From: a virus
Direction: 5' to 3' (one strand)
Virus record (IMG/VR): IMGVR_UViG_3300028800_000073
Coordinates: 1 to 64,000 of that record
Length of the DNA: 64,000 bases
Shown: piece by piece, positions 14,393-54,182 of the stretch
Position numbering within the stretch: position 1 is the first letter of the stretch
How the letters are laid out: each line of letters opens with the position of its first letter
Notes under the pieces: generated by a model
What the model was told of the DNA's origin: nothing
The model's input: the letters and a program-made list of their open reading frames with translations, nothing else
Databases searched by the model: none
Position numbers and translations under genes: made by a program

Positions 14393-15469
14393 TTAGGTAC
14401 CAATAAGGTCTAGGGCTTCGTCCCAAGCCTTTTGCTTTAACGCTAGTCCAGTACCAAAGTTAGCGGTCTGGAACCGGCGAGCAGCGCCAGTGGCGTCACT
14501 GACATCATGGTGGTCAACGTACTCCGTGCATGCCTGGAGAGCAGCCCAAAGGGTGTCCTTGATGTCTGGGGCAGCACAGGTTGGGCTAGCCATGATCTGA
14601 TCGAGCTTCGTAATGATCTTAGCATCTCTGCGCATAGCCTTAACCTTCTCAGCCTCGTCTAGCCCCACTGGAGCCTCTAGCCCGAATACTGCCCGCCAGT
14701 AGGCCTGGGAGTCTTCACGAGCCATCTTTGTCTCTGCCATGGCCTCAGACACCTCTTGGGTAGCTTTGGCGTCCTTAACGATATTTGAATAGGCCCCGAC
14801 AACGCCAGCGAGGAGGGCGTCTAGGGAACCATTGTGACGGATCGAGAAGCCCTCGGACAGAGCTACATCGCTGTAGTCCTGGTCCACGGCACGCTTCTGT
14901 CGTGCCGCCTCAGCACCCACTCTCGTATCAGTTGCCATACGCAGCGTGTTAACACACACTACTCTAACTGTCGTTGGGGTAAGCATTAACGACTTAGCGT
15001 TACCGTGACCATTGGTAATTAGCATGTAGGTCTTGATGGCGTCCTTCTTGACGTTGTACACCAAGTCCGGCATATAACCCATGGTCCACACGATTTGACC
15101 ACCACGGAGAGCACCAGCGGTCTCCCAGGTCACATGGAGGTCCTTGGCGATGAGACGCATCGCCTTGACCATCTCATGGTTCTGGAACACCCTGTAGCGA
15201 TCACTAACGATGCTCAGGGGATAACCGTTATCACTGCGCTTCAGGACCTTGAAGCCTTCGATAGGTTGAAAGGCCCCATCGGCGCCTTCATGGTTATTAG
15301 CCGCAAACACTTCTTCTCGCTGCACTTCCCAATTCAGACCGGCCTCTTCGAGGACTTGGTCATCAGTAATCTCAGCGGCTAGTACCTTACCGAGTTTGTG
15401 CCACGGGGACTCCCGTAGGCTAAACATCTCGGCTGTACCATCTTTACGCATACTCAGTTCATGGGCCAT
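14393..15469 (-). CDS. DUF932 family phage/plasmid protein
   Basis: MAHEL...PWHKLG, AGLNWEV, YRVFQN, ETAGALRGG, NGHG and TTVRVVCVNTL. Confidence 0.9.
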   Translation of the reverse strand: MAHELSMRKDGTAEMFSLRESPWHKLGKVLAAEITDDQVLEEAGLNWEVQREEVFAANNHEGADGAFQPIEGFKVLKRSDNGYPLSIVSDRYRVFQNHEMVKAMRLIAKDLHVTWETAGALRGGQIVWTMGYMPDLVYNVKKDAIKTYMLITNGHGNAKSLMLTPTTVRVVCVNTLRMATDTRVGAEAARQKRAVDQDYSDVALSEGFSIRHNGSLDALLAGVVGAYSNIVKDAKATQEVSEAMAETKMAREDSQAYWRAVFGLEAPVGLDEAEKVKAMRRDAKIITKLDQIMASPTCAAPDIKDTLWAALQACTEYVDHHDVSDATGAARRFQTANFGTGLALKQKAWDEALDLIGT

Positions 15470-34600: not shown

Positions 34601-34783
34601 ATCATCAAGTGGTAGCCGTGAACCGGACCCCATCCACGTTACTGGTAAGTGAATAGGGTTTCCGGGGCACTCTACCTCGGGTAACGGCAGCGCTTCACGA
34701 CAGACCTTAGCCAGAAATGCCTCTGGGGAGAGTTCCGGGAATGCGCTGAGCCGATATTCATTATGTAGCTCAGGCAATTCCAT
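31685..34783 (-). CDS. polA: Family A DNA polymerase with N-terminal UDG-like and 3'-5' exonuclease domains (SPO1-type architecture)
   Basis: UDG-like KPKVVIVCG; exonuclease FDTE, DTM, YGLRDAD; polymerase TATGRYTS..NLQ, DFKNAEIR (motif A), RVVAKSVLFGLIYG (motif B), IHDA (motif C). Confidence 0.93.
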   Translation of the reverse strand: MELPELHNEYRLSAFPELSPEAFLAKVCREALPLPEVECPGNPIHLPVTWMGSGSRLPLDDDEYADFLEQRQGWKTGMPVMVIVQNPSYEDVESGIGLSPASEVGSFMRNELEKAGVDLNDVMVTHGARFALPAHLKSLKSQHLKASSGYMLADIQACKPKVVIVCGAKMLPYLFGSKAKLDSVRGDVLDLDLSPHFENGHRCKVIATVSPAGFLSGYSDIEVFRSELKRAVGVLNDVVVAKPVPEEYLVLDTADGVEALCDRLIAEKPKRLVFDTEFGNDVAREEYRYTLSVQLAWGKGKAAFIKLRDQVEQKPYDVEVPYGKPNKEGVRKTKTKTIYPEPKCGVKFLSDADEKRIWIALTKLFLTKEIQISGQHMRVDTEEFARNGAYIDLRIADGFDTMLVHYLMHGDDSHGLDHLVREYLPEVGAYWRELEEWLSANQRKKRLQFGYRDVPLPILTLYGLRDADYSWQVAEILEKELDRFPKLKHLYYNTTTWASLHLLDVERHGLLIDDERRMELREEYHPIYEELLDKLRAAISWSSFEPTSKDDVAYLLFNRHVYKGRDKAKGSCPPEAVLFNCKPLYNTDKYPKSWELVEADGQQAYTTPSTEVDVIVALAQEDPENKSLVLLRHISVLGKMLSSCLKPITLNEFGVPKDGNGFAENIRNDGRVTSHFSQLTATGRYTSKKTNLQTWVKKQEAAVFEALVYHKFGITAKEYERRAFNGNDKGKPAYAGPDRIEKADQIHQTKFKSCVMAPKGYVLIEVDFKNAEIRSWAFCSGDTNLIKVISQNRDIHSEVAAVNFKLPEAEVLPRLLKQLDEGKRDEYDRWVADFKKNHDNLRVVAKSVLFGLIYGRGPSALAREIGAQGVPTTKDECIALINQISKMFPTAWDWLQGNAAFAIEHEYLENAFGARRYFPGIRKLSQKHQAAVRREAMNSNLQGLVAYLLAQAGKNFYRFKYMTEVGKTLDFKVILPIHDAFLIECREDQVEQCKAVIRTCMSLMNKIPGTDHYLDVDIEVATRWSEKEKKAA

Positions 34784-39888: not shown

Positions 39889-40074
39889 TTACCTTCCGTA
39901 TTCATGCAGTACCCGTGTTTTAACTAGTCGATATTCTATGACCGCCTCTGGATCTTCAATGACTACTCTACGACAGGTGGGGCAGAAGTACAAAGAAGCT
40001 ACCTCATGAACCATATGCTCTTGCATCATATCCCCACAACTACACCCCACACTGTCTTGTCCACACCGGCTCAT
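39889..40074 (-). CDS. Small Zn-ribbon protein
   Basis: CSCG...CPTC; ATGA overlap with the E1 gene. Confidence 0.55.
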   Translation of the reverse strand: MSRCGQDSVGCSCGDMMQEHMVHEVASLYFCPTCRRVVIEDPEAVIEYRLVKTRVLHEYGR

Positions 40075-40757
40075 CGCGCCGCCGCTGCTACCGCTACTGT
40101 CTTAGGGGTGTTGAACAGTTCTAGGGACAATAGATTCAAATTAAAGTCCTTTTCTAATGACATACCCCGTAGGTACTTAGAGAACTGACTAACCATCAGA
40201 CCAGCCGCGATATTGGCTGTGAAGATGGTGGACTTAGCGGTACAACTCCCTTGGAAGGCATCCTCTGCTGCAAATAGGCTATCACCATACGAGGGGGTAA
40301 CGAAGTTGTCTTCGGTCACCACGCGAATGGTCTCAGCCGACATGCGGGCGTCAATGAACACCTCAGTCTCGGGAAGCTTAGCAACCGTAGCGAAGATCTT
40401 ACCTCTTGTGGTAATATCGTCGACACAGCAGAAATAGATATCACCCTTAACTGCGTCACAGAACCGCATGTCATGAGCCGTAGTAGCTCCGGGGTTGAGC
40501 CCCTCACAATCAACAAGAAGAGCATCGACCTTCTTCTTACCGACGTCCCCGGGCCTAAAGCCCTGGGGACCGACATTGACGATGTCAACGGTGTCGAAAT
40601 CAACGATGTTCAATTTACCGATGCCACAGGCAGATAGCTGGAGAGCTACCTGCCTGCCAATGGCGCCGACTCCAATAACAACAGCCGCAGTCGCCTTGAG
40701 ATCTGCGGTTGGCAGCAAAGTAGACTGCCTATCGAACCGTGTTGGTTCAGTAGCCAT
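40071..40757 (-). CDS. ThiF/E1-like Ubl-activating enzyme (module B)
   Basis: RFDRQ, GVGAIG, DFDTVDIVN..Q, KKV, CCVD...R and IDARM; putative catalytic Cys in GSCTAK. Confidence 0.9.
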   Translation of the reverse strand: MATEPTRFDRQSTLLPTADLKATAAVVIGVGAIGRQVALQLSACGIGKLNIVDFDTVDIVNVGPQGFRPGDVGKKKVDALLVDCEGLNPGATTAHDMRFCDAVKGDIYFCCVDDITTRGKIFATVAKLPETEVFIDARMSAETIRVVTEDNFVTPSYGDSLFAAEDAFQGSCTAKSTIFTANIAAGLMVSQFSKYLRGMSLEKDFNLNLLSLELFNTPKTVAVAAAAR

Positions 40758-42202
40758 TAGGATTCCCCTAGCATGATTTGAGTTTCTTCTTCGCTCGCCG
40801 GCTTAGCCGGTGGAGTGCCGCAATACTCAATGAATGAACCACCATTCTCGATAACATCACTTTCGTCGTACATATCCTGGATCTGGAACAGAGCCGCATC
40901 AGCAGTCAGCTCGCCAGATACGACTTTCTCAGCCAATAGCATCTCATCGTGGGTCAGGATGAGGGCATCACAGGCGTCTACGGAGCCACGTAGCTGCCAT
41001 AGACAGTTAGCCCGAACCTTCTTGTACACATTCGTGACGATGTCGCCGGTAATGACGGTATCACCGTACTTCCGGGTATGCGTCAGATTGTTCATTGCTC
41101 TCTCGAAATCATCACGCTCAGCGTTGATGTTCTCTTCGAAGTCAACAAATGCCCACGCCTGACTAAACGGCAAATCGTAGAACGTCTCACCACGAGACAG
41201 CGTAAACCGCTGAGTCCCGTTTGTTACATTTATGACTTCCTTGAAACCATACTCCTTGAGATACTCTACTCTTTCTGGCGTGGAAGGCGGAACCCACTTA
41301 AGCTGCTCCATAGACCAGAGAGCGTCAACGTACGTACCCTCTGCAAGAGTGGGGGGCGTGACGCCACCTTGTTGTCTGGGAAACGGAATCGTGGACAGTG
41401 CCTCCTCCCCATGGGACTTGGCGCCAATTATGATTTCCTGAGTAATCTCCGCGACTGCGTCAGTAATCGCCTGCTGCGTCGGAGTCGTCTCCTGACGAAG
41501 AGCGAGATTCTCCCGTGCAGCAGCTCTAGCGGCCCGCTTCTGCTGCTTCTTGCTAAGAGGCATCTGCTGCTGTACCTGCTTGCCCCAGTACCCACTTGGG
41601 AGCTGTGAGCGCCCCTTGTAGCCACCACGGGTATCTGCGTCTTCACCGTAACCACCATAGGCATAGCCCTGGACAGTAATCTTGGGGGTGATCTCTGCCT
41701 TCCACTCAGCGTGATTAGCGCCCTTGAAGTCAGTGGTAAGAGTCAGCTCCTCCTTGAGCATCATCTGGAGGTTAACATCATTGCCAAGGGATACTCGAAT
41801 ACGGGCATAGAGCGGGCCACCCTTAGGAAGGATAACCATCATTGCCCATGGCATGGAGCCAAAGGATTCAGCGAAAATATTCTCATCGTGCTGCGACGGA
41901 TTCAGGCATCCAGACGGGTGGGTGTGGATGTAGATACGTCCAACCTGATGGGGCTTCAACTTATGCGGCCCCTCGGGGTCACAGTACTTCATGAACATGT
42001 TGTCAGCGATATCCGCTGCGTCCATGTCAACGAATACCGTGGAACACTTCTGCTTCGGAATATACAGATCGGTAACCAAGAATGGGTCAGCCGTTTCAGC
42101 TAGACCCATGGCTCCGACTTCATGGTTATAATGATCGCAGATGAATTGGAGCTTAGCCCGAGCATACGGGGTAAACTTGAGCGTGATGCCGGTGATGTTC
42201 AT
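40757..42202 (-). CDS. JAB/MPN+ metalloprotease with a long C-terminal extension (module B)
   Basis: EVG...HTHPSGCLNPSQHD fits the E...HxH-x7-S-x2-D JAMM motif. Confidence 0.88.
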   Translation of the reverse strand: MNITGITLKFTPYARAKLQFICDHYNHEVGAMGLAETADPFLVTDLYIPKQKCSTVFVDMDAADIADNMFMKYCDPEGPHKLKPHQVGRIYIHTHPSGCLNPSQHDENIFAESFGSMPWAMMVILPKGGPLYARIRVSLGNDVNLQMMLKEELTLTTDFKGANHAEWKAEITPKITVQGYAYGGYGEDADTRGGYKGRSQLPSGYWGKQVQQQMPLSKKQQKRAARAAARENLALRQETTPTQQAITDAVAEITQEIIIGAKSHGEEALSTIPFPRQQGGVTPPTLAEGTYVDALWSMEQLKWVPPSTPERVEYLKEYGFKEVINVTNGTQRFTLSRGETFYDLPFSQAWAFVDFEENINAERDDFERAMNNLTHTRKYGDTVITGDIVTNVYKKVRANCLWQLRGSVDACDALILTHDEMLLAEKVVSGELTADAALFQIQDMYDESDVIENGGSFIEYCGTPPAKPASEEETQIMLGES

Positions 42203-42207
42203 TGTGT

Positions 42208-44604
42208 TTATCTTGATGGGGTTTCGGATATAGCGGGTGCTGCCGTAATGAAGTCTACGTGTGCTAGCCTACAGAGCGTATCAGCAACAACCTCAATTGT
42301 AAGACCAGAACGGAAGGTACCATGGTCATTAAGAGCGCTCCTGAGCCGATGAATGGTTTCATACCAGTCAACGGATTCCCAGTCTTCGAGTTCTGAGCTA
42401 TCCTCTTCAAAATCTTCATCCTTAACAAGTACTAGATCCATGATATACGCCTGAGGCACGAAATGCTGCAACAGAGTCATCAAATAAGCTTCCCGCATAC
42501 CGGGTTGGCATACCGCGTCTGATAGGCCCACTGAAGATGGGTCACAGGTCTTACAGGTCTCGGTATTCATGATCTCATCGAAGGCAACAATGGTATTGTT
42601 GAAAACAGCATCGGACAAATTTATTTCGCCTAGTGTGGCACCACAGCTTGGGCAATTGCACCCCGGCGTTGGAGCTACTACTGGGAACGCTACAGTGGAA
42701 TCCGCTTCAATAGCCGCACGTTGAGCCTCTATAACTGCACGCTGAGCCTCGCGGGCTACTCGTGCTGCCTCACGCTGAGCAGCTTCTAATGCTAGTCTAG
42801 CCTCTATCTCTTTGTTAACACAGTTCGCGCAGATACAAGTGCTGCCTTGATTACGACCGTGGTAGCGCCTGGAATCATATCTGGTATTACACGTTGCACA
42901 CGGCTTGATATAGCGCTTATCAATCGACTGTTTACTGATACCACAGACCTCAGTGCAATTCGGGCACATATGGATATCGGCATGCGGATCACGCTTCCTG
43001 GTCTCAGCGACAAGGGGCGTAGTACAGATATCACAGCGATCCATATCGGACCAATTATCAAGACTGATATATGGCGAACGGCCATACGTCATCAAGATGC
43101 GCTCGATATATTGGAATAGATCCGCGATTAGTCCATTACGCATCAGGTTGCCAGCGGTAGCTAGACCCTCACCGAAACATAGGTGCGTACCCTCAACGTG
43201 GGGGTGCGACCAGCTTGTCCCGCGTTCACGCCTGGGGAAATGCGGGGTAAGCGCCTTAATCCTACAGACTCTATCGACATTACGCTGTGTATCTCCACAG
43301 GCATAACCGAAGTCATACGCTGCGATGATAATAGCGAACTTATTGAACTTAATCGGGATCTTTCTATCGTCCATCAGTTCGACATCTTCGGTTACGAACT
43401 TGATACCAATGGGTGCTACTCCATTGTCTATCATGGAACCCTCTTCATGGAACTGAAGAGCCTTGGCACGCATCAAGGTGGCGCACTCAACGATGAACCG
43501 ATCAATGACGTCTTGCGACGGACGAGGCGGTTCCACGTTGTAGGGGTTCTCACCATTTTTAATGGCCAGCAATTCGTCTAGCACCTTCTTCTTCATGTCA
43601 TTAGAGAAAGCTTCACGAAGAATAGTGGGCAGCTTCTGGGCACTCTCGCCGCAGCAGAACAGGCCGTGCCAATGGGCTAACACATTAGTGACGCGTTGGA
43701 AATTCCCAGCGTTACCATTTGCTGCGCCCTTCTTGAGCCCCTCTTCGTAACCGAAATAGAAGTTCTGCACTACTTTAATGAGTTTGTCTAAATCCTCGAT
43801 GGCATCAGGAACTAGCCTGCGCACCGTCGAGTCTACAGCAGTTCCCTGCTCTGTGTTCAGTGTTCTCACTTGTCTTTCCTGTGGTGTTACTACTGCAATA
43901 GCGCTTCTGTCTGATCCCGTACTAGCGAAGTCGGTACTTACGCTGAAAATTCTGGGAGCGTCGCTACTCACCATAAACATATGCGGTGGTATGCCCATAG
44001 CCCGGGTGTAGTCACTTAATGTAGCCCGCAATGGACCTTCTTCTACTACCATGTGAGCCGGAATCGGCTGGATCGGAGGCGCCATTGGTTCTAACGCCTC
44101 CTGAATAGCACGGAGACTAGCAGCCGCAGATGCAGGGCTGGGGAAGGCGCCAGTTAAGTCGCCACCGACAGTACCAACTGTATTGTTCGCCCCAGCTGCT
44201 CGCTGGCTTTCAATGGCGTGCATAATCTCACGACCATCAGCGTTAATCTCGTCCATCACAGTATGATTAGCCGGTCTACCACGTATCGTAAAAACATCCC
44301 CGGGGCGGATCTGAGTCATTACGGGAGCGCGGCTATTATCCAGTAGAACGCGGTTGACTTCGTCTCTAAACTGTACTTCGCTTAACGGCACTGGTACTGG
44401 GCGGTTAAGTGCCCTATCTACAATATTTGTCGAAGCGTTATCACCGAACTGTTCTCTCCAGGCGCTCTGGCGTACCAAAAGCTCATCTAAGACATCTCGT
44501 GACATATTCGGGAATCGCTCCCGTAAATTAGGGGGATGCCTGAAATAGTCCAGAGCGTCCTGGAGCATGTCATCCGGTGAGGAAAAAGGGTTGAACTCAC
44601 TCAC
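42208..44604 (-). CDS. Prokaryotic E2-like conjugating protein with a C-terminal Cys-rich Zn-finger region (module B)
   Basis: SHPHVEGTHLCFG (HPH...C, E2-like) and SPY..L..W, followed by CDIC, CPNC, CATC, CANC, CPSC and CKTC. Confidence 0.75.
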   Translation of the reverse strand: MSEFNPFSSPDDMLQDALDYFRHPPNLRERFPNMSRDVLDELLVRQSAWREQFGDNASTNIVDRALNRPVPVPLSEVQFRDEVNRVLLDNSRAPVMTQIRPGDVFTIRGRPANHTVMDEINADGREIMHAIESQRAAGANNTVGTVGGDLTGAFPSPASAAASLRAIQEALEPMAPPIQPIPAHMVVEEGPLRATLSDYTRAMGIPPHMFMVSSDAPRIFSVSTDFASTGSDRSAIAVVTPQERQVRTLNTEQGTAVDSTVRRLVPDAIEDLDKLIKVVQNFYFGYEEGLKKGAANGNAGNFQRVTNVLAHWHGLFCCGESAQKLPTILREAFSNDMKKKVLDELLAIKNGENPYNVEPPRPSQDVIDRFIVECATLMRAKALQFHEEGSMIDNGVAPIGIKFVTEDVELMDDRKIPIKFNKFAIIIAAYDFGYACGDTQRNVDRVCRIKALTPHFPRRERGTSWSHPHVEGTHLCFGEGLATAGNLMRNGLIADLFQYIERILMTYGRSPYISLDNWSDMDRCDICTTPLVAETRKRDPHADIHMCPNCTEVCGISKQSIDKRYIKPCATCNTRYDSRRYHGRNQGSTCICANCVNKEIEARLALEAAQREAARVAREAQRAVIEAQRAAIEADSTVAFPVVAPTPGCNCPSCGATLGEINLSDAVFNNTIVAFDEIMNTETCKTCDPSSVGLSDAVCQPGMREAYLMTLLQHFVPQAYIMDLVLVKDEDFEEDSSELEDWESVDWYETIHRLRSALNDHGTFRSGLTIEVVADTLCRLAHVDFITAAPAISETPSR

Positions 44605-44894
44605 GTCTTCCTCGACAACTTCTCAAGCGCAGCATCTAGCCCTTTGACTCTGAACTCGCTGACATCTCCTTCATGGTTACAAAGACCACAAACGCATAGG
44701 CTATGCTCGTGAAAGTCGAATTCGGCCATGTCGACCATTATTCCTTTACTGTCAAAAATACCTACACATACGCCGCCTATCTCAAAACGAGATCTACCTC
44801 CGCATCCCGGGCAGATCAGGTCTTGGGATGTGCCCCGGTTTATGTCGTTTTTCGTTAATCTGAACTTCGTTATTACTTCATTGGGGTCATTCAT
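44601..44894 (-). CDS. Zn-ribbon protein
   Basis: CPGC...CVCGLC; coupled to the E2 gene. Confidence 0.6.
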   Translation of the reverse strand: MNDPNEVITKFRLTKNDINRGTSQDLICPGCGGRSRFEIGGVCVGIFDSKGIMVDMAEFDFHEHSLCVCGLCNHEGDVSEFRVKGLDAALEKLSRKT

Positions 44895-45688
44895 TACTTA
44901 CCTACGATAGTGAACTTCTTTGCTAATTTAAGACGCTTCTGCAATGTCTCACGATCCCAACCCTGGCCCTTGGGCTTCGGCTTAGGGCTAAGCTGGAAAA
45001 CCATAACCAATACACCTTCGCCACCTACGCCTATACTAAGAGTTTCGAGATGCTTACCTACGTGTCCATTCTTATAGCAGCTGGACAACGTAAACTGAAT
45101 GAAATCCTCCTCGCTCGGATTCGGAGTACCATAGTCCAGCACTGCGTTTTCTACTAACCCGGCTCTGTAGGAACTATACTTACAAGGCTTATTGAACGTT
45201 AGGAAGAGTAGCCCACCACGCTTCTTCATCATTGAAGTGAGACCTCTCTCTAATTGCCGAGCACAATCACCGTAGTCGTCGCAGGCTATAACATCGAATT
45301 TCCAGCTATCGCGATCAGCTATCTCGGCAAACTGGGCTGCCATAACTGTAAGCGCGTCGCCGTCTTCCTTGCGTCGGTTAACCATTTCAGAACAGAAGGG
45401 TCGGAAAGCCTTAGTCATCTCACCTTCCTGCCCATCATCCTTAAAAGCATGGGACTGATACAGAACTAGCCCGGATTTACCCTCCAGCCATTTTTGTATG
45501 AGTCCCTGTTTTTCGGTATGGTGCATCGAAGGATGCCCAGTAGCCTTTTTCCATTGACGCCTGTAAATGTTAACCTTAGACAATTCCAAATTCAACTTCT
45601 CGCCAATCTCTTTGTTCGGTGCGCCGCTATGCATCATTGCAAATATTGCGTCACGAAGTTTAGTACCATCAGCTAGGCGTATAGTCAT
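44894..45688 (-). CDS. HTH plus degenerate methyltransferase-like domain protein
   Basis: NKEIGEKLNLELSKV (HTH); FDVIACDDYG...GGLLFLT resembles Trm1-like FDxIDLDPYG. Confidence 0.45.
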   Translation of the reverse strand: MTIRLADGTKLRDAIFAMMHSGAPNKEIGEKLNLELSKVNIYRRQWKKATGHPSMHHTEKQGLIQKWLEGKSGLVLYQSHAFKDDGQEGEMTKAFRPFCSEMVNRRKEDGDALTVMAAQFAEIADRDSWKFDVIACDDYGDCARQLERGLTSMMKKRGGLLFLTFNKPCKYSSYRAGLVENAVLDYGTPNPSEEDFIQFTLSSCYKNGHVGKHLETLSIGVGGEGVLVMVFQLSPKPKPKGQGWDRETLQKRLKLAKKFTIVGK

Positions 45689-45701
45689 GTTTTTTCCTAT
45701 A

Positions 45702-45737
45702 GAAAAAGATGCCCCCGTGGGGTTACCACGGGGGACT
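45702..45737 (-). terminator. Rho-independent terminator after the poly-Ubl gene
   Basis: Minus strand CCCCCGTGG-taacc-CCACGGGGG then CATCTTTTTC. Confidence 0.75.
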
Positions 45738-45762
45738 TTGTGTTTACAGCGTACGAACTAAA

Positions 45763-46428
45763 TTAGGCGCCCTGGACCTTGAGCGGGGTGACGGAGATCT
45801 TGTCCCCGTTACGCAGCACAGTCGCAGCCGTGGAGATCTCGTTGTTCACACGAACGAGCTTGCCACGGATGTCATTCAGGCCCTGCTGAGCAAGGAACTG
45901 AGTCAGGGTGATGCCGTCAATGGTCTGAACGGAGCTGGCGAAGCCGGCACCATCGTTGTTGATGTACAGAACCTTAATGGTCTCCACGGCACCCTGGACC
46001 TTGAGCGGGGTAACCGAGACCTTATCGCCGTTCTGGAGAACGTAACCCGCATCAGCCAGGTTGTTATTCACGCGAACCATCTTGTTGGCGATGCTGACAC
46101 CACGACCCGAAATGAACGCCGCGAGCGTGGTGCCCGGGGTGAACGCAACGGAGTCAGCGAAGCCGCCGCCATCGTTGTTGATGAACAGGACCTTGCTAGC
46201 AGCAGCGGGAGCCGCGTAAGCAGGGGCCGCAGCGAACTCGATCTCAATGTAGTCACCGTGCTTAATCGTAGCGTGACCGCTTGAGGGGGTCTCGGAACGG
46301 TTAATGTAGACGGAGGAACCAGCGGGGAGGCCTAGCGCGTTGATGAGTGCATAGACCGTGATATCACCGGCGAAATCCTTGAATGCCGGGGTGCCGCCGT
46401 TGATTTCAACGTTTACTGAGATAGTCAT
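45763..46428 (-). CDS. Three-domain ubiquitin-like (ThiS/MoaD beta-grasp) precursor
   Basis: Three ~70 aa beta-grasp-like units. Units 2 and 3 share INNDG.GFA, VRVNN and L.NGDK.SVTPLKVQGA. Confidence 0.85.
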   Translation of the reverse strand: MTISVNVEINGGTPAFKDFAGDITVYALINALGLPAGSSVYINRSETPSSGHATIKHGDYIEIEFAAAPAYAAPAAASKVLFINNDGGGFADSVAFTPGTTLAAFISGRGVSIANKMVRVNNNLADAGYVLQNGDKVSVTPLKVQGAVETIKVLYINNDGAGFASSVQTIDGITLTQFLAQQGLNDIRGKLVRVNNEISTAATVLRNGDKISVTPLKVQGA

Positions 46429-46432
46429 TTTG

Positions 46433-48754
46433 TTATTCCTTCTTAGCTAATTTGATGGTTTGATCAAAGAAGCTGGTTAGTGATTCGGCGTGTGTAACTA
46501 TTAATATCTGTCTCCCGGTACTCCCGGAAAACTGCTTTAATTTCAAGAGTAACTGTTGTAGATGAACAACGTTGCTCTCGTCTAAATGGTTCGTCGGTTC
46601 GTCGAGTATGAGTAACCCAACGGAACGCGCAAATGTGTCAGACATCGCGAGGCGGAAGCTTGTACTTGCTACAATCTTCTGACCACCGCTTAACCGGTGA
46701 GCCGGTAGCTCAAAGCCACTACTGAACTTGGCTCTAAACGACAGGTCTGCATCCAAGTAAAATTGAAACGGGGCTTCCCAAATCGCCATATAGTGCGCCA
46801 TGCGCCTATTGATCTTATTGGCGTACTCCCGCATCATTAGAGCTGGTAATCCATTGACATGGACTACTTCTCTAGCTCGGGAACACAGTGAAGACCACTT
46901 AGCGGCATTACGCTCGTGGTCATACTGCTTCCTAAGCTGATCAACCGTACTACGGAGCTGGATAAGCTTGGCCTCAGTAACGCCGAGCTTAGTAACTAGT
47001 TCGCTTCGAGTTTGTGTCCGCGCAGACAATATCTCAATCTTTTCTTGAGCTTCTTGTAACTCTGCTGGGGACATCTCGAACTCACTGGTACCCAGTTTAA
47101 GCACCATATCCTTGAGCCGTGCTACCTCTGACGCACACGACGCTTGGGCTGCTTGCTTAATCTGTACCCCTGACTCCGCTTTAACTACCTGATCCTGTAG
47201 CTCCCTAAAGGCATCTACGGCCTTCTGGAGTGACTCAATTTTACCGCTATCAATGCTGGGCAACCTACTGAGTTGAGTACTGATATCGAGTAAACGATTA
47301 GTACCCTGTTTATAGGCTCCCCATTGTGTCTCCAAAGCGGCCTTACTAGCGAGCATTTGGTCGTATTGCGGTTTCGTGGCTTCAAGCATATTTGCCACAG
47401 CCACGCAAGCCGCTTTACGACGCTCTTCTAGTTGCTCCGATATAGTACCCAAATCCCTCTGGGCAGCAGCGACTCTCATCGATTGGTCGCTCTTAATCTT
47501 AGCTATCTCAGCATGCATAGTAGCGGCACGCTGCTTGAGATCGGCATCATTGAAGTCGACAATAGGCCGGTGGCACGTTGGACAGCTACCATCGGCAAAT
47601 GTCTGTAATTCGTACTGAATCCTGCGGATGTCAGCCTCGATGACCACTAGCTTGGGGTCGTCACGTTTCAGTTCTGACAACTGTTTCGTTAACCCTTCGA
47701 CACGATTCGCTAGATCCCTATCCTCTTCTGTTTGGGGTAAGGGTATCTCTTTGCGAATAATGGCTTTTAACTTTGAGCGGGTCTCGGTGAGCTTATTAAT
47801 GGTCTCATCGTATATAGTGATCTCAGCACCGGGCTTAACCAGTTTGGCGTCAATAGTTTGACGCTCGCTGCTCAATACATTACGTTGTGTCCAAGCTGAC
47901 TTAGCTTGATCCAATTCTTTAGCCTGTTCAGCAGCTCCGGTCCGTAGAGCGGAGAAACGCTGAGCAATGATATCGTATTCCTGCTTGGCTAAACTCAGAA
48001 CCTTGTCGGCCTCTATGTAGCGCTCCTGCGCCAGGGAAAGAGCCTCTTCGGTTTGCCGTTTAGCTGACGCACTCTGTTGAGCGATCCTGTAATGCCTCAG
48101 GCGCTCTTCGTACTTCGACAATCCAAGTAGTTCTTCTTCAATAACCCTGAGTTGCTCCCGGAACTCCTGTAGTTCCGTTGTAACCGTTTGTGCGGCCCCT
48201 GAAGTAACTCCGAGCTGCTCTTCTAGCCCTGGAGTGACAGTCAGAGAAGAAATCTCAGTGGACAGTAACCTGTAGACATCAGCGGCCTTGGATAAGCCGA
48301 AGGTGTCTTGGAACTCTTTGAGTCTCTCGGTATTCGTCTTAAATAGGATGTCGTCAATGGCGTGCTGAGCAATGAAGACGTTGTTGAGCAACGCATCCAT
48401 TCTGGTATTGAGTAGAAGAGTCATCTTCTCTTCTATCTCAGCCTGCCGACTAACGATGCCTCCAGGGAACTTTAATTGTTGCCGAGATGGCTCTAGTACG
48501 CGCTTGATCTCGTAACTGCTATCCCCGTGGGTGAACGCCAACGTAACTGATCCAGTACGTTCACCCACAGTGATATTTTCAGCACGAGGCCCCGACGCGA
48601 CTGACTCACCGGTAACAGCAAATCGGATCGCATCGAGTAGCGACGATTTACCGCAACCATTAGGCCCCAAGATACCGGTCAAGCCTTCACTGAACCGGAT
48701 ATCCAAGGACTTCAGTGGCCCCCAGTTTGTCGTTTGTAGCCGCGTCAGAATCAC
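46433..48754 (-). CDS. sbcC: SbcC/Rad50-like SMC ATPase
   Basis: GPNGCGKS, coiled coils, CPTC zinc hook, LSGGQ, LILDEP and VTH. Confidence 0.92.
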   Translation of the reverse strand: MILTRLQTTNWGPLKSLDIRFSEGLTGILGPNGCGKSSLLDAIRFAVTGESVASGPRAENITVGERTGSVTLAFTHGDSSYEIKRVLEPSRQQLKFPGGIVSRQAEIEEKMTLLLNTRMDALLNNVFIAQHAIDDILFKTNTERLKEFQDTFGLSKAADVYRLLSTEISSLTVTPGLEEQLGVTSGAAQTVTTELQEFREQLRVIEEELLGLSKYEERLRHYRIAQQSASAKRQTEEALSLAQERYIEADKVLSLAKQEYDIIAQRFSALRTGAAEQAKELDQAKSAWTQRNVLSSERQTIDAKLVKPGAEITIYDETINKLTETRSKLKAIIRKEIPLPQTEEDRDLANRVEGLTKQLSELKRDDPKLVVIEADIRRIQYELQTFADGSCPTCHRPIVDFNDADLKQRAATMHAEIAKIKSDQSMRVAAAQRDLGTISEQLEERRKAACVAVANMLEATKPQYDQMLASKAALETQWGAYKQGTNRLLDISTQLSRLPSIDSGKIESLQKAVDAFRELQDQVVKAESGVQIKQAAQASCASEVARLKDMVLKLGTSEFEMSPAELQEAQEKIEILSARTQTRSELVTKLGVTEAKLIQLRSTVDQLRKQYDHERNAAKWSSLCSRAREVVHVNGLPALMMREYANKINRRMAHYMAIWEAPFQFYLDADLSFRAKFSSGFELPAHRLSGGQKIVASTSFRLAMSDTFARSVGLLILDEPTNHLDESNVVHLQQLLLKLKQFSGSTGRQILIVTHAESLTSFFDQTIKLAKKE

Positions 48755-48756
48755 GC

Positions 48757-48963
48757 TTAGTTACTCTTGATCTTCTGGGTCAAGAGAACAGCGTTACCCT
48801 CCATGAGGACGGTGCCAAGGGCGCCGACGCTGCCATTGATGCGGATGTCGAAGCCTGAGGCGTCGATACCAGCTGCTGCTAGGGCATCAGCTACCGTCTT
48901 GCCTTCCGGGAGGTTGAGGGGGCGGATGGATGAGCCAGGGAACTTGCCGATGGTGATATTCAT
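48757..48963 (-). CDS. Single-domain ubiquitin-like (ThiS/MoaD-fold) protein (module A)
   Basis: 68 aa; TVADALAAAGI, IRING and L.EG..VLL; C-terminus KIKSN; directly downstream of E1. Confidence 0.8.
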   Translation of the reverse strand: MNITIGKFPGSSIRPLNLPEGKTVADALAAAGIDASGFDIRINGSVGALGTVLMEGNAVLLTQKIKSN

Positions 48964-48974
48964 GTGATTCTTTC

Positions 48975-49673
48975 TTATGACCGGGTTAGGATACAGGGAG
49001 GTGTGACGCCGAAAATTGTTTCTCTTGGCATCCGTTCGACCTTAGAGGCCTTGTCGGTGTACCAATTGAACCAGTTAATGAAACTCCATACCGCTAGACC
49101 GCTAACGATCTCAGCAGTGGGGCCAACGGTAATTTGCGAACCACAAGCACTGACAACAACGACTTCTTCGTCGCCGCAGAGAGTGCCCTCCCAGAATTTG
49201 ACGTCATCAGGACTCGTCGGACGCACCGTATAGGTACGACCTAAGTCGACACCCATACGGGTCTCGAACATGACGTCGATAAATGGCTTATACCGCACGG
49301 CCCCTTCCCAGATTTCCTTTCTGGAGGACATTGTGTCGGTAAGCAAGAATACTACGGACCCCAGCGTTGTGCGGCCATTAACGGCCTCACAATGTTTGGT
49401 CACGTCTAAATTCGTCTGTGTCTTAATAAGGTCAGCTAAGGCGTCTACCTTGAACTTACCGATGTCGTTGTTGCCGTAAATCTGATTTGCGATATTGTGG
49501 GACTCGACCTTGTCGAAATCCCAGACATGCAAATTGATAACACCGAGCTTAGCCAGACCCATGGCGATACGACTACCAGTGGCTCCGACTCCGATAACGT
49601 CAATACGGGTATTGTCGAACTTAACCGGCGAGAATACCTTTTGGTGCCGCATGGCATCGACTAAGTTACTCAC
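48975..49673 (-). CDS. ThiF/E1-like Ubl-activating enzyme (module A)
   Basis: GVGATG, DFDKVESHNIANQ, KFKV, LTDTMSSR and ETRMG; putative catalytic Cys in SACG; likely GTG start at 49673 overlapping the JAB stop. Confidence 0.9.
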   Translation of the reverse strand: MSNLVDAMRHQKVFSPVKFDNTRIDVIGVGATGSRIAMGLAKLGVINLHVWDFDKVESHNIANQIYGNNDIGKFKVDALADLIKTQTNLDVTKHCEAVNGRTTLGSVVFLLTDTMSSRKEIWEGAVRYKPFIDVMFETRMGVDLGRTYTVRPTSPDDVKFWEGTLCGDEEVVVVSACGSQITVGPTAEIVSGLAVWSFINWFNWYTDKASKVERMPRETIFGVTPPCILTRS

Positions 49674-50433
49674 CCCAGAACGTTTCTTCGCTGAATTGTC
49701 CAAAGCGACCCGACGCAGGACCAGCCTGCTGTCCGGATGCCGAGAACTCCGCATGCGTCTTCATAGGTGCCGCGTGGGGATCTACAAAGTTACTTCTCGG
49801 TGTCGGCGTTGGAGTCTGATATGGATACGAGATCAGAGACTTATTGGCCGAATAAAACGATTCAACCAACGAGTTGACCTCTTTACCCCAGTGGCTTTTT
49901 CGGTCGCCCCCGGCAGCGTAATCGATCTCCCAATCAATATCCTCGACTACGATGTCCATCTCGAACCAGAAGAAGTCCAACTTCATCTTGTGACGCTTGT
50001 TCACGATGCCACGGAGCACCCAGGGGTACTCGTAGTTATCGCGGAACGCCATCGTCTGGTCGTTGTCCTGACCACTGGGCAAAACGTCCATATTGACGTG
50101 GCTATGGAAATAGCCGCGCAAGTTATTGGCACGCCACAACGCTGGATCGATACCAGCGGCCATGTCCTCAGCGATAAGCTGAGTACCTAGTGTGGATAGC
50201 CCCTCGGAAGTCAGCTCAGTGGTTGTCGAGTGAACCTGCTGCTTGAACAAATAGACGTCATCAACATAAATGACGCGCTCGCCGTTCTCTTTGACTAAAC
50301 GAGCCGTGGTCAGCCAGCCGACTTCGGTACTAACAATATCAGTCAAAATCCACATATCCGTAGCCGCCCTGAGTGAGACTTTCACTCGGGGGCAGCCTAG
50401 GACGGTGGTCTGGAATGCATGTGGATTAAACAT
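49666..50433 (-). CDS. JAB/MPN+ metalloprotease (module A)
   Basis: EVGW...HSHVNMDVLPSGQD JAMM motif. Confidence 0.88.
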   Translation of the reverse strand: MFNPHAFQTTVLGCPRVKVSLRAATDMWILTDIVSTEVGWLTTARLVKENGERVIYVDDVYLFKQQVHSTTTELTSEGLSTLGTQLIAEDMAAGIDPALWRANNLRGYFHSHVNMDVLPSGQDNDQTMAFRDNYEYPWVLRGIVNKRHKMKLDFFWFEMDIVVEDIDWEIDYAAGGDRKSHWGKEVNSLVESFYSANKSLISYPYQTPTPTPRSNFVDPHAAPMKTHAEFSASGQQAGPASGRFGQFSEETFWGE

Positions 50434-52175
50434 TAGAACGGCCCTTCTCCTGGAGTTCTTTCTACTTCGTCAGCATCTTCTGGTGCCCCAACTGCTACAA
50501 GCTCTTCTAAAGCAGCGGCAATAACTTCAACAATCTCTGCACCGTCAACAGCAGTAGCCGTGCCAGTAGCGCCGGCTCCGGCATCAACAATCGTTACAGT
50601 ATCAACAGCAACAGGTGGTACCGCAACAGGTGGTACCGCAACAGGTGGTACCGCAACAGGTGGTGCTTCAGCCACTGCTGGGGTTTCTTCTTCACCCTCT
50701 AGAATGCCTTCAACAACAGTCTCAACGGTATCGACTTCAACGGGCTGCCCAGCTGCCGCTCGTGCTGCACGACGCAACTCCCGAGCTGCTTCCTTATCGA
50801 TCTCCTGTTGCTTAACCGATAGCGGCCAAGCATGAACCATCTTGCCGGCGGCGTCGTCAACATTGCAGGTCTGGAGAATCGCAATCACTAGCTCGATGGC
50901 ATCAGCAATCTGATATCCAGCGACTAGCTTCGGTAGCACCTCTTCCATATTGCCGAGACACATACGCCCCGTTGGGAACACATGGGGACCATGCATATTG
51001 GGCTGCATACCAGTCACTTGGCGATCAAGGTTGGTAACGACGATGTTGTACCGCTTGATATCGATATGAATCGACATGCGACCAACTTCGTGCTCCTTCT
51101 TCGACCGTGGATCAACTACTGTCAAAGTATTGGTGCGCACCGTAATATTACCGTTACGCATCCTGATCTGCTGGATCAACGGATTAGCCGCCAGACGATC
51201 ATACTCTGCTGTGAATCGCGGAGTACTGAAATCGGCATCATTGTCTAGTACTGCTATTTCCTTGAGGCACTGGCGTTCTTCGCGGATCCCGTCAAATACC
51301 TTCTTATTCAAGTTCGTAAGCTCGGTCTGGACCGTGTTCAGTCTATTGGTGATCTCACGGACCTGGATCTGCTTACGCTTCTCAACCATTCTGACGTAGT
51401 CCGCTCGTAGCGCTGCTGGATCAGTCTCGACGAGCTTAGCACGGGCATAGTTCTCGGCAACGTATTGAATGATCTTCTTGAAGATCTCAACTTCTCTAGG
51501 GCTATTGTTGTGACACAAGTCCGAATAGATATAGAGGTTATTCTCATCGAAGCCTGCAATCGGTCGCTCGGGATACTCCGGGGAGCAAACGTCTATGCCC
51601 TCAGTCCATGGGACGCCATCCATTGCGTCACGGGTCTGTAACTCCATGCCCCACAGAATCCGAGGTGGATCATACGAGGGCTCGCCTCCATCTCGTGCTT
51701 CTGGAGTAGCCCACACATGAATCTTGAACATCGATTCAAGGGTATTGGGAACAATGGAACGACTATTATGTGGTACGTCGATAGTGACATCGCGCTTAAT
51801 GACGGGGACCAAGATCTCACGGCAGATCTTTAGCCAGCCATCGGCTACTGGGTTACTGACAACACCACCACGGATATGACCCCAGTTAACTATACGGATC
51901 GTTGAAGGATCCCTACCGGCAACGGACGGGGTACCATCACGATAAACAATTTGAGCAACCTTTATGATAACCCCGGCAGCTTCAGCTGTTGGCGGTGTAG
52001 CAACGGTAGCGGTGATATTGTAGAGCTTACGACCAGAGCTTTCAATCTTAGCGATTAATGCTTCTCTAGCTACGAAGTGACCACCATGCTGGGGTTCACC
52101 GTAGATACGCAAGCCGATCCCACGAAGTTCTTCGCGGGACATCTCGGTTGCTTTGACAAGGACTAGTTCAGGCAT
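50433..52175 (-). CDS. Prokaryotic E2-like conjugating protein with a coiled coil (module A)
   Basis: HGPHVFPTGRMCLGN E2-like catalytic motif after a coiled coil; coupled to JAB and sbcD. Confidence 0.75.
   Translation of the reverse strand: MPELVLVKATEMSREELRGIGLRIYGEPQHGGHFVAREALIAKIESSGRKLYNITATVATPPTAEAAGVIIKVAQIVYRDGTPSVAGRDPSTIRIVNWGHIRGGVVSNPVADGWLKICREILVPVIKRDVTIDVPHNSRSIVPNTLESMFKIHVWATPEARDGGEPSYDPPRILWGMELQTRDAMDGVPWTEGIDVCSPEYPERPIAGFDENNLYIYSDLCHNNSPREVEIFKKIIQYVAENYARAKLVETDPAALRADYVRMVEKRKQIQVREITNRLNTVQTELTNLNKKVFDGIREERQCLKEIAVLDNDADFSTPRFTAEYDRLAANPLIQQIRMRNGNITVRTNTLTVVDPRSKKEHEVGRMSIHIDIKRYNIVVTNLDRQVTGMQPNMHGPHVFPTGRMCLGNMEEVLPKLVAGYQIADAIELVIAILQTCNVDDAAGKMVHAWPLSVKQQEIDKEAARELRRAARAAAGQPVEVDTVETVVEGILEGEEETPAVAEAPPVAVPPVAVPPVAVPPVAVDTVTIVDAGAGATGTATAVDGAEIVEVIAAALEELVAVGAPEDADEVERTPGEGPF
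50608..50664. repeat. 15-bp tandem repeat (about 3.8 copies) encoding PPVAV
   Basis: GCAACAGGTGGTACC x3 plus a 12-bp partial copy. Confidence 0.95.
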
Positions 52176-53268
52176 TGATATTTTCTCGTTTCTTAATGAG
52201 TATTTCTACTGGGTCTGAGTTTGGTTCTAAGAGATTGAGTAAGAAGCCGTGTAATTCGGACTGTTTATTGGGGTCGACTAATGTACTAAGTAATGCTGCG
52301 ACAGAGATGTCATCGGTCTCTTGTGACGACTGAAGCTCCTCAGCGTCTTCGGTGTCTAGGACGGGGTCGCGGTGGATGATGGCCTTTCGTGTTTCTACGA
52401 AGCGTTTGTAGATCTCCGAAAATGAGGTATTCATTTCCGGTGAATGATGGATCCAAGCAAATGGGGGAAGTGGTCCAGCTTCCATGTCACCGCAGGCTTC
52501 GCAGAGCCAGTTGTGGACATGAGACAGACCGATATCGTCTAAGACCGTAAAGCGTTTGATATGACGGTACGACAAGGGATGCCGGTCATAGGACAGGTCG
52601 TCGTTAATGACGACACAGCTCTTGGGTCCGATCTGCGTGATATCCCTGGCGTGACCGGGACCGGTATAACAGGCTCGGCGGTTACCGGGTAGTGTGAAGT
52701 CCATCGGTACGTGGATATCACCGATAACAGTCAATTTACAGTTACCCGGAATCCACTCTAAATCACAGTTCCAAGCATTCTCGAAGCCCAGGGCTTGCTT
52801 GACGGCTTGGTGGAGGAACAAAACCCTTTCTGTGCCTTCAGGATCGACTTTGTTGGCTAACCCCTCCAAGGAGGCCTTGATGTCATCTTTCGAGCTGTAA
52901 TCGAACCCCAGGGCAGAGCAACCACCTAAATCAAACGGTTCCCCGTTGCCAACGTACTTCGGCCAGTCATGGAGCGCACTGGGCCACGGAGTCTTTTGGA
53001 GGTCATGATTGCCTTGGATAAAGAATACTGGGATCCCAGCTTCTTTGGCGCGATCCATTTGTCTTCGGTGAATCGTTACGAGATCAGAAGACGGTTTCGT
53101 AGTGTCAAAGAGATCCCCAACGATCACTGCTGGTACCTTCAGCCCAATGGCTGCGCCAATGAAACTGCTGTAACCCAGTTCAGAGTCTCCTCTTACGGTA
53201 TCTATACTACTCCAGATCTTAGGGTCTAAGTGGATGTCTCCAAGTGCTACTGCAATCGGTTTTGTCAT
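52168..53268 (-). CDS. sbcD: SbcD/Mre11-like nuclease
   Basis: GDIH, GDLFD, GNHD, LHQ and GDIH phosphoesterase motifs; sbcC partner downstream. Confidence 0.88.
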   Translation of the reverse strand: MTKPIAVALGDIHLDPKIWSSIDTVRGDSELGYSSFIGAAIGLKVPAVIVGDLFDTTKPSSDLVTIHRRQMDRAKEAGIPVFFIQGNHDLQKTPWPSALHDWPKYVGNGEPFDLGGCSALGFDYSSKDDIKASLEGLANKVDPEGTERVLFLHQAVKQALGFENAWNCDLEWIPGNCKLTVIGDIHVPMDFTLPGNRRACYTGPGHARDITQIGPKSCVVINDDLSYDRHPLSYRHIKRFTVLDDIGLSHVHNWLCEACGDMEAGPLPPFAWIHHSPEMNTSFSEIYKRFVETRKAIIHRDPVLDTEDAEELQSSQETDDISVAALLSTLVDPNKQSELHGFLLNLLEPNSDPVEILIKKRENINA

Positions 53269-53295: not shown

Positions 53296-53477
53296 AAACG
53301 TGTTCTTAATTCGAGTAAGTACTCTCTATTTTCTTTGTCTATTAGGTCATACAAAGTCTATTATATAGAGAGATATAATATACTTTCCCGCAATAAGAAC
53401 ACGTTTTGGGACCTACTGAAAAATCATGTTCTTATTAATGGAAAGTATTATAATACTTTCTCGAATTAAGAACATGT
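53296..53477. repeat. AT-rich element with four ~25-bp repeats in two inverted pairs and a perfect 20-bp palindrome; candidate origin or operator
   Basis: TGTTCTTA-N6-G(A/T)AAGTA units near 53299(+), 53403(-), 53425(+) and 53476(-); GAAAGTATTATAATACTTTC at 53441-53460. Confidence 0.8.
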
Positions 53478-54182
53478 CTGTTTCCGACCGACTCTGGCCC
53501 ACCTATGGATGTCTCTGAACTTCTCAACAACTAGTTCGTAGTCGCCATTGACTTCATTGACATCGAGTCCAAGGAACGGTGGAACACAGTCCTGGGTCCA
53601 AGCACTGAGGGCACCTTCCTTAGAAGTGAAAAGATTATCAGTAACTCCTAATGCCTTATAACTATCTATGGCTTTACCGGTATCCCGGAATTGCTTGAGA
53701 TCACTGATCCCTGACAGGCTACAGATACCGTGGTTGGTACCACCGATGTAGGTGACATATCTGGTATAGAAACCAATATTCCATCGTCTCGGCTTAGTAA
53801 TCCGTTTATAGGCTACACCGTTAATCTCTTGATCCAGCGGAATCGTATCGAGATACCGCCAGACATAGTAGGGATAATCCATTTCTACAAAACGAGTTAA
53901 GAGTCTTGACTGGATCCTGTACCAACAACTTGGGCATGCCAAGCTGTTACAGTAGTGTCCCGACCTATTGAACCCCCGCAGCCCCCTACACTCGGCTCCG
54001 CTTAACTCGTCGTAGCGTTCCTGTCTATTCCTGAAGAAACGCCACCAATTACTATAGTTCTCGCTATGAGCCAGCATAGACTGCGTCAAATAGTAGTTCA
54101 TCATGTCTTGGACGCTGTCGCCAAGAAACTCTGGTTCCATATATTCCTTTAAAGAGACCGGGTAGTCTCGGCTACCGGTCAA
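53466..54182 (-). CDS. Zn-finger protein, possible origin-binding/initiator
   Basis: C-x12-C-x4-CPSC (HYCNSLACPSCW); adjacent to the repeat element. Confidence 0.45.
   Translation of the reverse strand: MTGSRDYPVSLKEYMEPEFLGDSVQDMMNYYLTQSMLAHSENYSNWWRFFRNRQERYDELSGAECRGLRGFNRSGHYCNSLACPSCWYRIQSRLLTRFVEMDYPYYVWRYLDTIPLDQEINGVAYKRITKPRRWNIGFYTRYVTYIGGTNHGICSLSGISDLKQFRDTGKAIDSYKALGVTDNLFTSKEGALSAWTQDCVPPFLGLDVNEVNGDYELVVEKFRDIHRWARVGRKQTCS

Follow-up and report, generated by a model that had tools for sequence, protein, structure and literature searches.

Two predicted ubiquitin-like conjugation gene sets within the DNA-replication operon of an uncultured soil phage

The prokaryotic ubiquitin-like protein (Ubl) conjugation systems characterized so far, namely Bil, the Type II form of CBASS, a signalling system against phages that is based on cyclic oligonucleotides, and, by inference, Bub, are owned by hosts and act against phages. 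This raises the question of whether the complete machinery can also be found on the side of the virus. We address it with the first 64 kb (positions 1–64,000, here referred to as the window) of IMG/VR virus record IMGVR_UViG_3300028800_000073, a linear record of 79.8 kb with a CheckV completeness of 43% that comes from an uncultured soil phage; the whole genome is estimated at about 180 kb. Within the DNA-replication operon of this phage we recognize, from sequence comparison, two full sets of genes for a Ubl tag, an activating enzyme (E1), a conjugating enzyme (E2) and a trimming protease of the JAB type, referred to here as modules A and B. Both lie wholly on the minus strand. A preliminary description of the window had reported the order E2–JAB–E1 twice, with Ubl genes alongside, and had placed the genes inside the replication cluster; all are present, on the minus strand, at the coordinates that it gave, they form complete E1–E2–JAB–Ubl sets, and the location is real.

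The E2 of module A (E2-A; 50433–52175, 580 amino acids) comprises an N-terminal α/β domain, a long helix (approximately residues 253–312), a predicted ubiquitin-conjugating (UBC) catalytic domain (residues 313–453; 50817–51239) and a low-complexity tail. It has no match in Pfam, PHROG, PADLOC or NCBIfam, and a word-index search found only three relatives. A profile of these four sequences, searched against 1.84 billion cluster representatives, retrieved 1957 proteins with E ≤ 1 × 10−3, 1106 of them with E ≤ 1 × 10−10, and a Pfam scan of 90 family members gave no family in common. When the record was searched in six frames, the Pfam family Prok-E2_D (PF14460) had no match with E ≤ 10; a structural lead came from a viral Prok-E2_D cluster, to which E2-A has a template modelling (TM) score of 0.55. 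Across 131 diverse homologues, P397, H398, C406 and P451 are invariant, and G403, G408, N438, D441, G444 and W450 are nearly so. Cys406 (codon 50958–50960) closes the motif GPHVFPTGRMC. The first His of the HPN-type motif is replaced by Gly or Ala, and the Cys follows 7–8 residues on, as is required of an E2.

An AlphaFold2 model built from a deep alignment has a mean predicted local distance difference test score of 85; as far as residue 470, the majority of 10-residue blocks score over 90. Foldseek searches of the PDB with this model returned almost solely ubiquitin-conjugating enzymes (probability up to 0.98). VIA-align superposed model residues 313–453 on residues ~2–145 of UBE2S, UbcH10, Ubc13 and UbcH5 (114–118 residues aligned, root mean square deviation of 3.6–4.5 Å) with Z-scores of 7.0–7.8, a range that the tool flags as possibly unspecific; every one of the top 50 entries was an E2 (50/50). 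When the model was compared exhaustively with 48,161 representative chains, the nine best were likewise all E2s, and the lower-ranked chains were mostly single long helices placed on residues 251–313, with further E2s among them. When viral models were searched, the best named matches were the E2s of Bodo saltans virus and African swine fever virus, ranked under two uncharacterized phage proteins.

Profile searches of PDB sequences with the whole length of E2-A gave coiled-coil noise only, so a profile of the domain by itself was needed. This profile backs the structure comparisons independently: its six best matches are all E2s (two UBE2W and four UBE2A/B entries; E = 0.4–1). In the printed alignments, aPHvfpdGraClGn of E2-A stands opposite HPHVYSNGHICLSI of UBE2W and HPNVYADGSICLDI of UBE2A. 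The equivalent loops (HPHVYSNGHIC in UBE2W, HPNVYADGSIC in UBE2A) share the 11-residue spacing and, because they align in register, Cys406 falls on the catalytic cysteine. We therefore found no sign that E2-A lacks a UBC fold, an outcome that the preliminary description had named as one that would speak against it: both model and profile match E2s, and the confidently modelled domain has a genuine UBC fold that spans almost the entire E2 chain, C-terminal helices included. The low-complexity tail, of about 100 residues, is missing from the three closest homologues; here it contains PVAVP repeats encoded by a perfect 15-nucleotide tandem repeat of 3.8 copies (50608–50664).

The second E2 (E2-B; 42208–44604, 798 amino acids) is more distant. 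It has no match in Pfam, PHROGs, PADLOC or NCBIfam, it is not detected by the hidden Markov model of the E2-A family, and neither the word-index search nor a first viral scan found relatives. Comparison of profiles by hhalign, however, aligned the E2-A family with E2-B over 105 columns (92%, E = 6.8 × 10−7; residues 342–450 against 400–518) and paired both the PHV...C loop and the closing Trp of the two proteins. The UBC-like core of E2-B (residues 400–518; 43051–43407) has the motif HPHVEGTHLC, and is followed by a tail with five CxxC pairs. In five homologues, H467, P468, H469 and C476 are invariant, as are the five CxxC pairs in the C-terminal half. The core is thus homologous to the UBC domain of E2-A, with a conserved Cys at position 476, and the putative zinc array might serve the E2 as an internal E3-like or substrate-binding element.

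Both modules encode predicted JAMM/MPN+ metalloproteases with the full motif: JAB-A (49666–50433, 255 amino acids) has EVGW and HSHx7SxxD, and JAB-B (40757–42202, 481 amino acids) has EVGA and HTHx7SxxD in an N-terminal JAMM domain that precedes a conserved C-terminal extension of about 300 amino acids. Neither exceeds its Pfam cut-off, and PHROGs, PADLOC and NCBIfam gave nothing. The residues E37, H110, S111, H112, S120 and D123 of JAB-A are invariant in seven homologues, and the same holds for E28, H93, H95, S103 and D106 of JAB-B in its homologues. A profile of JAB-A matches the proteasomal deubiquitinase Rpn11 across the whole MPN domain (E = 1.5 × 10−3) and also BRCC36; the two JABs match each other by hhalign (98.7%, E = 2.3 × 10−16).

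The E1s are single-domain ThiF-type adenylating enzymes, with no rhodanese domain, and are the components most readily recognized by reference models: E1-A (58.9 bits, E = 5.4 × 10−16) and E1-B (76.7 bits, E = 2 × 10−21) both exceed the cut-off of 28.1 bits for Pfam ThiF (PF00899). E1-B (40071–40757) has 228 amino acids. The frame of E1-A (48975–49754) has 259 amino acids and overlaps JAB-A by 89 nucleotides; its true start is likely to be the GTG at 49673, a codon that overlaps the stop of JAB-A and yields 232 amino acids, the length in relatives. The two E1s share 28% identity (E = 7 × 10−18). When 13 E1s of both types, taken from this phage and related ones, are aligned, there is no variation in the N-terminal Arg, in GxGxxG or in the adenylation-site Asp, Lys and Arg. 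A single Cys just ahead of the helix that follows this site is also invariant (13/13) and may correspond to the crossover-loop Cys of ThiF, MoeB and Cap2. The motifs that the preliminary description had assigned to the E2, JAB and E1 genes are all in place, and their invariance across homologues shows that they are not chance occurrences.

Among NCBIfam names, ThiF and MoeB fit the E1s best; the NCBIfam model for the SAMP-activating E1 matches E1-B at 5.6 × 10−9, well under the model cut-off, and the PADLOC Cap2 'E1-E2' models are matched by the E1 domains with E-values down to 8 × 10−16. In an unrooted tree, the A-type E1s all fall on one side of a branch with support of 91/87, and the B-type E1s group together with support of 100/98. 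This topology fits an ancient paralogy or separate acquisition of the two modules better than a recent duplication. Both E1s also have weak, sub-threshold matches to PRTRC_ThiF (TIGR03736), far under its cut-off. A DUF932 gene lies elsewhere in the window (14393–15469; 3 × 10−36), and members of this family accompany PRTRC (ParB-related, ThiF-related) cassettes on plasmids and islands.

Each module is accompanied by a predicted β-grasp modifier. Ubl-A (48757–48963, 68 amino acids) has nothing in Pfam, PHROGs, PADLOC or NCBIfam, and its profile matches SAMP2 (5lda_B) over the full length (E = 2.4 × 10−6), as well as PF1061. Ubl-B (45763–46428) is homologous to Ubl-A and consists of three tandem β-grasp units, the second and third of which each end in SVTPLKVQGA; Pfam scans gave weak matches to Ub-Mut7C and TGS, and its Atlas neighbours carry ThiS and SAMP2. 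In relatives, A-type tails consist of K[IV]KG and then Asn or Ala, in some cases prolonged by an extension or by another tandem unit. In B-type tails, the Gly precedes one residue or a short extension (QGA in the window; EGAGSRN, KGA, EGN and GGC in relatives), and one internal Ubl-B junction (NIKAA, in locus L019) is without Gly. Type II Bil has Ubls for which the deubiquitinase (DUB) must take off an Ala after the Gly before the E1 acts (PMC10557695), and the Gly-plus-one-residue tails found here correspond to that precursor form.

The tail of Ubl-A in the window departs from this pattern. Although both Ubl genes that the preliminary description had listed are present where it placed them, Ubl-A lacks a terminal Gly: it ends in Lys-Ile-Lys-Ser-Asn (KIKSN; 48757–48780), whereas nine more distant relatives have Gly at the position of the Ser, with Asn or Ala after it. 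The Ser is encoded by AGT in the window and by AGC in the relative whose E2-A is 58% identical (locus L018), and this synonymous change indicates that the Ser was inherited and kept and is not a read error. A contig from another sequencing run is identical across the Ubl-A stretch.

Do these genes belong to a phage? The preliminary description had allowed that the contig might prove to be a host chromosomal island; its gene content identifies it as a phage. The record encodes a large terminase (TerL; phrog_675, 3.8 × 10−39), a DnaB-like helicase, a primase, a UvsX-like recombinase, a family-A DNA polymerase (PolA) with exonuclease and uracil-DNA-glycosylase (UDG)-like domains, an Mre11-like nuclease, a Rad50-like ATPase and a ResIII/SNF2-type helicase, together with HNH endonuclease and RNA ligase genes, and three relatives with the same layout are complete genomes of 180–191 kb with direct terminal repeats. 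The TerL is at most 24% identical to the terminase of any cultured phage, which leaves the phage with neither a cultured relative nor an assigned host. Searches of 50,697 GenBank phages with the region (megablast) and with E2-A (tblastn) gave no match. Contigs from rhizosphere metagenome runs cover parts of the sequence only.

We surveyed gene order, as the preliminary description had proposed, with pattern scans run on IMG/VR and on the genomes of 185,579 prokaryote species, and both the cassette and the two-module order recur in other phages. The E2–JAB–E1–Ubl set is present in 12 distinct phage loci, and its four genes are kept together through rearrangement. The full layout, Mre11–[A]–Rad50–Ubl-B–[B]–helicase–DnaB–primase–PolA, was found in six phages: the window phage, genomes G001–G004 and a 99-kb contig from a metagenome-assembled genome (MAG) that also has a terminase. 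E2-A of the window is 58% identical to that of G001 and 26–30% identical to those of the remaining members. B-type Ubls of 1–3 units lie between Rad50 and E2-B in all six, and an Mre11 orthologue is in the equivalent position in G001–G004 and at locus L025. The scan of prokaryote genomes found two MAG contigs only, one phage-like and the other with the cassette alone.

The other loci have one A-type cassette each, in different orders and places. In one complete genome of 185 kb, the cassette and Rad50 are 19 kb apart, another cassette lies beside ribonucleotide reductase in a 217-kb genome, and a complete 43-kb phage has a cassette, a serine recombinase and no SMC-type gene. Linkage to Mre11 and Rad50 is thus a trait of the six-member clade only. 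Because single A-type cassettes sit elsewhere, including in a phage without Rad50, the position in the replication operon says nothing about the substrate. Some cassettes have unusual gene structures. At L022 (10596–11742; G005, a complete 185-kb phage), the JAB is split into two frames of 106 and 190 amino acids about 250 nucleotides apart, and the Ubl is a two-unit tandem in which each unit ends in KQIKGN. At L013 (4825–7395; G007, a complete 43-kb phage), the order is Ubl–E1–E2–JAB, the E1 is split over two frames, the E2 has 343 amino acids and an Mrr nuclease is present.

In the window, the minus-strand order is Mre11, E2-A, JAB-A, E1-A, Ubl-A, Rad50, Ubl-B, a terminator, two small genes, E2-B, JAB-B, E1-B, a Cys-rich protein and the helicase, with adjacent genes abutting or overlapping. 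The Mre11/SbcD-like nuclease (52168–53268; Pfam Metallophos, 4.3 × 10−7) is directly upstream of module A and overlaps E2-A by 8 nucleotides, and the Rad50/SbcC-like ATPase (46433–48754; Pfam SMC_N, 4.7 × 10−20) separates the modules. A strong two-way hairpin terminator (45712–45734; 9-bp stem in which 8 pairs are GC, then T-rich tails on either strand) lies directly after Ubl-B and splits Mre11, module A, Rad50 and Ubl-B from the transcription unit of E2-B, JAB-B and E1-B. Given this placement, Ubl-B would share a transcript with module A and not with its presumed enzymes. Between Ubl-B and E2-B are two lineage-specific minus-strand genes (44601–45688) for proteins of 264 and 97 amino acids, the shorter with CxxC motifs; they are found in the window and G001 and are absent in G002–G004, and a Pfam scan gave no significant match for either. 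E1-B is followed by a zinc-ribbon-like Cys-rich protein of 61 amino acids (39889–40074, minus strand) that is kept in G001 only and whose membership of module B is uncertain. The operon is headed, upstream of Mre11, by a 238-amino-acid protein without a family match (53466–54182), a position kept in 6/6 members of the clade.

What would the modules do? We consider it probable that the phage encodes two paralogous ubiquitin-like conjugation cascades that act via cysteine thioesters. The JAMM protease would trim the Ubl precursor, cutting off the one residue beyond its C-terminal Gly (Asn in A-type Ubls, Ala in B-type Ubls), and the tandem Ubl-B may also be cut at an internal QG|A site. The small, presumably dimeric E1 would then adenylate the new C terminus and load its invariant, putative crossover-loop Cys, from which the Ubl would be handed to the invariant Cys in the UBC fold of the E2, at position 406 in A and 476 in B. 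The large accessory parts of the E2s, an N-terminal domain and long helix in A and an N-terminal region and zinc-ribbon array in B, may choose the substrate with no need of a separate E3, in the way that has been suggested for Bil; targets would be host or phage proteins. Tagging may also be reversed by the JAB. The different Ubl tails and the split between A and B in the E1 tree make it plausible that the modules are orthogonal.

Several observations weigh against this picture. With Z-scores below 8 and E-values of 0.4–1 against PDB sequences, the assignment of E2-A as an E2 draws on several weak lines that agree and on no single strong score, and E2-B is placed in the fold by homology between profiles. 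The Ser-Asn end of Ubl-A may mean that module A is altered or slow in this phage. Finally, none of the results points to a target.

The list that follows ALTERNATIVES weighs a sulfur carrier, counter-defence by decoys or by the DUB only, and a phage-borne defence. The last of these would make the modules a Bil-like anti-phage system for superinfection exclusion that tags structural proteins of competing phages. Such a role would match that of the characterized bacterial systems with this gene set, Bil and Type II CBASS, both of which are anti-phage defences, and the cassette does shift among genomic contexts; however, it has a place in a core replication operon kept in six divergent lytic-type genomes and is near-absent from the 185,579 prokaryote genomes, the E2, JAB and Ubl have no PADLOC match and there is no CapH/CapP-type regulator. 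We regard this explanation as unlikely. We give marginally less weight to counter-defence centred on the JAB, which would strip host Bil or CBASS conjugates while Ubl, E1 and E2 serve as decoys or competitors of host enzymes. Host defences based on Ubl conjugation exist and are reversed by JAB peptidases, and the Ser-ended Ubl-A could be a poor substrate, yet a decoy would have no need for the ATP-site residues, every one of them invariant, or for the putative catalytic Cys that is likewise invariant in the two E1s and the two E2s, and the four genes co-vary as a unit.

A sulfur carrier that, like ThiS, MoaD, Urm1 or SAMP2, serves with its E1 to thiolate a nucleic acid or cofactor seems very improbable. 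The best NCBIfam names of the E1s are in keeping with it, as is the resemblance of the Ubl to SAMP2, which has a side role as a sulfur carrier in archaea. Searches of the record and of the complete relatives nevertheless found no ThiG, MoaE or TtuA/NcsA-type (PF01171) thiolase gene, with control genomes matched as expected, which extends to whole genomes the reason for which the preliminary description had thought sulfur-carrier cofactor synthesis unlikely. The absence of a rhodanese domain from the E1s also speaks against sulfur transfer, in which the conserved UBC-fold E2 and JAMM protease play no part.

If the modules are conjugation cascades, are they versions of a known system? Bil comprises BilABCD in Types I and II, the class 6d/6C operons of Iyer et al. 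2006 (PMC10557695, bioRxiv 10.1101/2023.09.04.556158). The modules share with it the presence of Ubl, Cys-dependent E2, JAB and E1 as four separate genes, the E2–JAB–E1 order and the lack of an E3 gene. In contrast to Bil, a bacterial defence, they are located in replication operons of lytic-type phages; the Ubl gene comes last in module A and not first, as in the order bilA-B-C-D; the E1s are a single adenylation domain of 228–232 amino acids, whereas BilD has IAD, AAD and a mobile CYS domain (PMC10557695); and the E2s, at 580 and 798 amino acids, have large accessory regions. PADLOC models gave no match to E2, JAB or Ubl at E ≤ 0.1. By E1 architecture, Ubl position, sequence membership and genomic setting, the modules are not members of Bil.

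Type II CBASS (Cap2/Cap3) and the Bub (6E) operons (PMC10097602, PMC11601596) offer other comparisons. The E1s match the PADLOC Cap2 models and have a JAB partner, as in Type II CBASS, but there is no E1–E2 fusion here and there is a dedicated Ubl, which CBASS lacks. Bub Ubls have 1–3 β-grasp units, as does Ubl-B; however, Bub has cysteine-free E1 and E2 enzymes that use Tyr/Ser oxyesters (PMC11601596), whereas the E1 and E2 cysteines are invariant here, and Pfam scans found no DUF6527 protease of the kind present in Bub; the modules are therefore not Bub systems. Archaeal sampylation (SAMP2, UbaA and JAMM1) is similar in that Ubl-A matches SAMP2, the E1 is small and of the ThiF/UbaA type and a JAMM partner is present. 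Sampylation is not known to use an E2; SAMPs end in Gly-Gly, and the tails here are Gly-Asn, Ser-Asn or Gly-Ala.

The modelled E2-A resembles eukaryotic UBC E2s (UBE2W, UBE2A/RAD6, Ubc13 and UBE2S) in its full UBC fold with C-terminal helices. Its loop, xPH[VI]xxxGxxCLG, is spaced as the eukaryotic HPN[IV]xxxGxICL, and UBE2W likewise reads HPHV. It differs in that identity is 11–18%, the domain lies inside a much larger protein and there is no Pfam UQ_con match. The E2s of Cap2 and BubB are without the C-terminal helix pair (PMC11601596), and E2-A seems to retain this pair, judging by how it aligns with E2 chains of full length. In loop signature and fold completeness, E2-A is nearer to eukaryotic E2s than the E2s of Cap2 and Bub are according to their descriptions, which bears on the origin of the eukaryotic ubiquitin system.

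The enzyme superfamilies are familiar; what is new is the phage-borne family and architecture, for which we propose a function in conjugation. We found no paper on phage-encoded E1–E2–JAB–Ubl cassettes or on the E2-A family in the literature covered, which did not extend to subscription journals, and the E2 family, with about 2000 sequence clusters, is modelled by no reference library. If the cascades are active, phages mark proteins with their own ubiquitin-like tags, much as eukaryotic viruses manipulate ubiquitin, and a system this small and E3-free should be easy to reconstitute. More tentatively, and as a wider proposal that we would not favour at even odds, tailed phages may run their own E1–E2–DUB–Ubl cascades during infection for host take-over, counter-defence or control of their own replication and recombination proteins. 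Under this proposal, the clade would keep two cascades that are not interchangeable, the Ser-ended Ubl-A would be an unusual modifier, possibly DUB-resistant or differently activated, and the E2 family would be a large hidden phage reservoir of canonical-type E2s, of relevance to the rise of the eukaryotic system.

Relatives of the E1 genes are also present in GenBank phages, where ThiF genes of Xanthomonas jumbo, Flavobacterium FpV4-like and crAss-like phages are labelled 'thiamine biosynthesis'. A regular-expression search for the E2 motif found none in FpV4 or PhiXhv-12. In Flavobacterium phage FpV4 (NC_041872; L024, 3698–5630), gp51, beside the E1 relative, has HSHx7SxxD and a weak Prok-JAB match. 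In Xanthomonas phage PhiXhv-12 (L023, 1736–5612), the E1 is preceded by a 140-amino-acid protein ending in Gly-Gly and an 892-amino-acid uncharacterized protein. Elsewhere in the window, the family-A DNA polymerase (31685–34783, 1032 amino acids) has its uracil-DNA-glycosylase-superfamily domain N-terminal of the 3′–5′ exonuclease domain.

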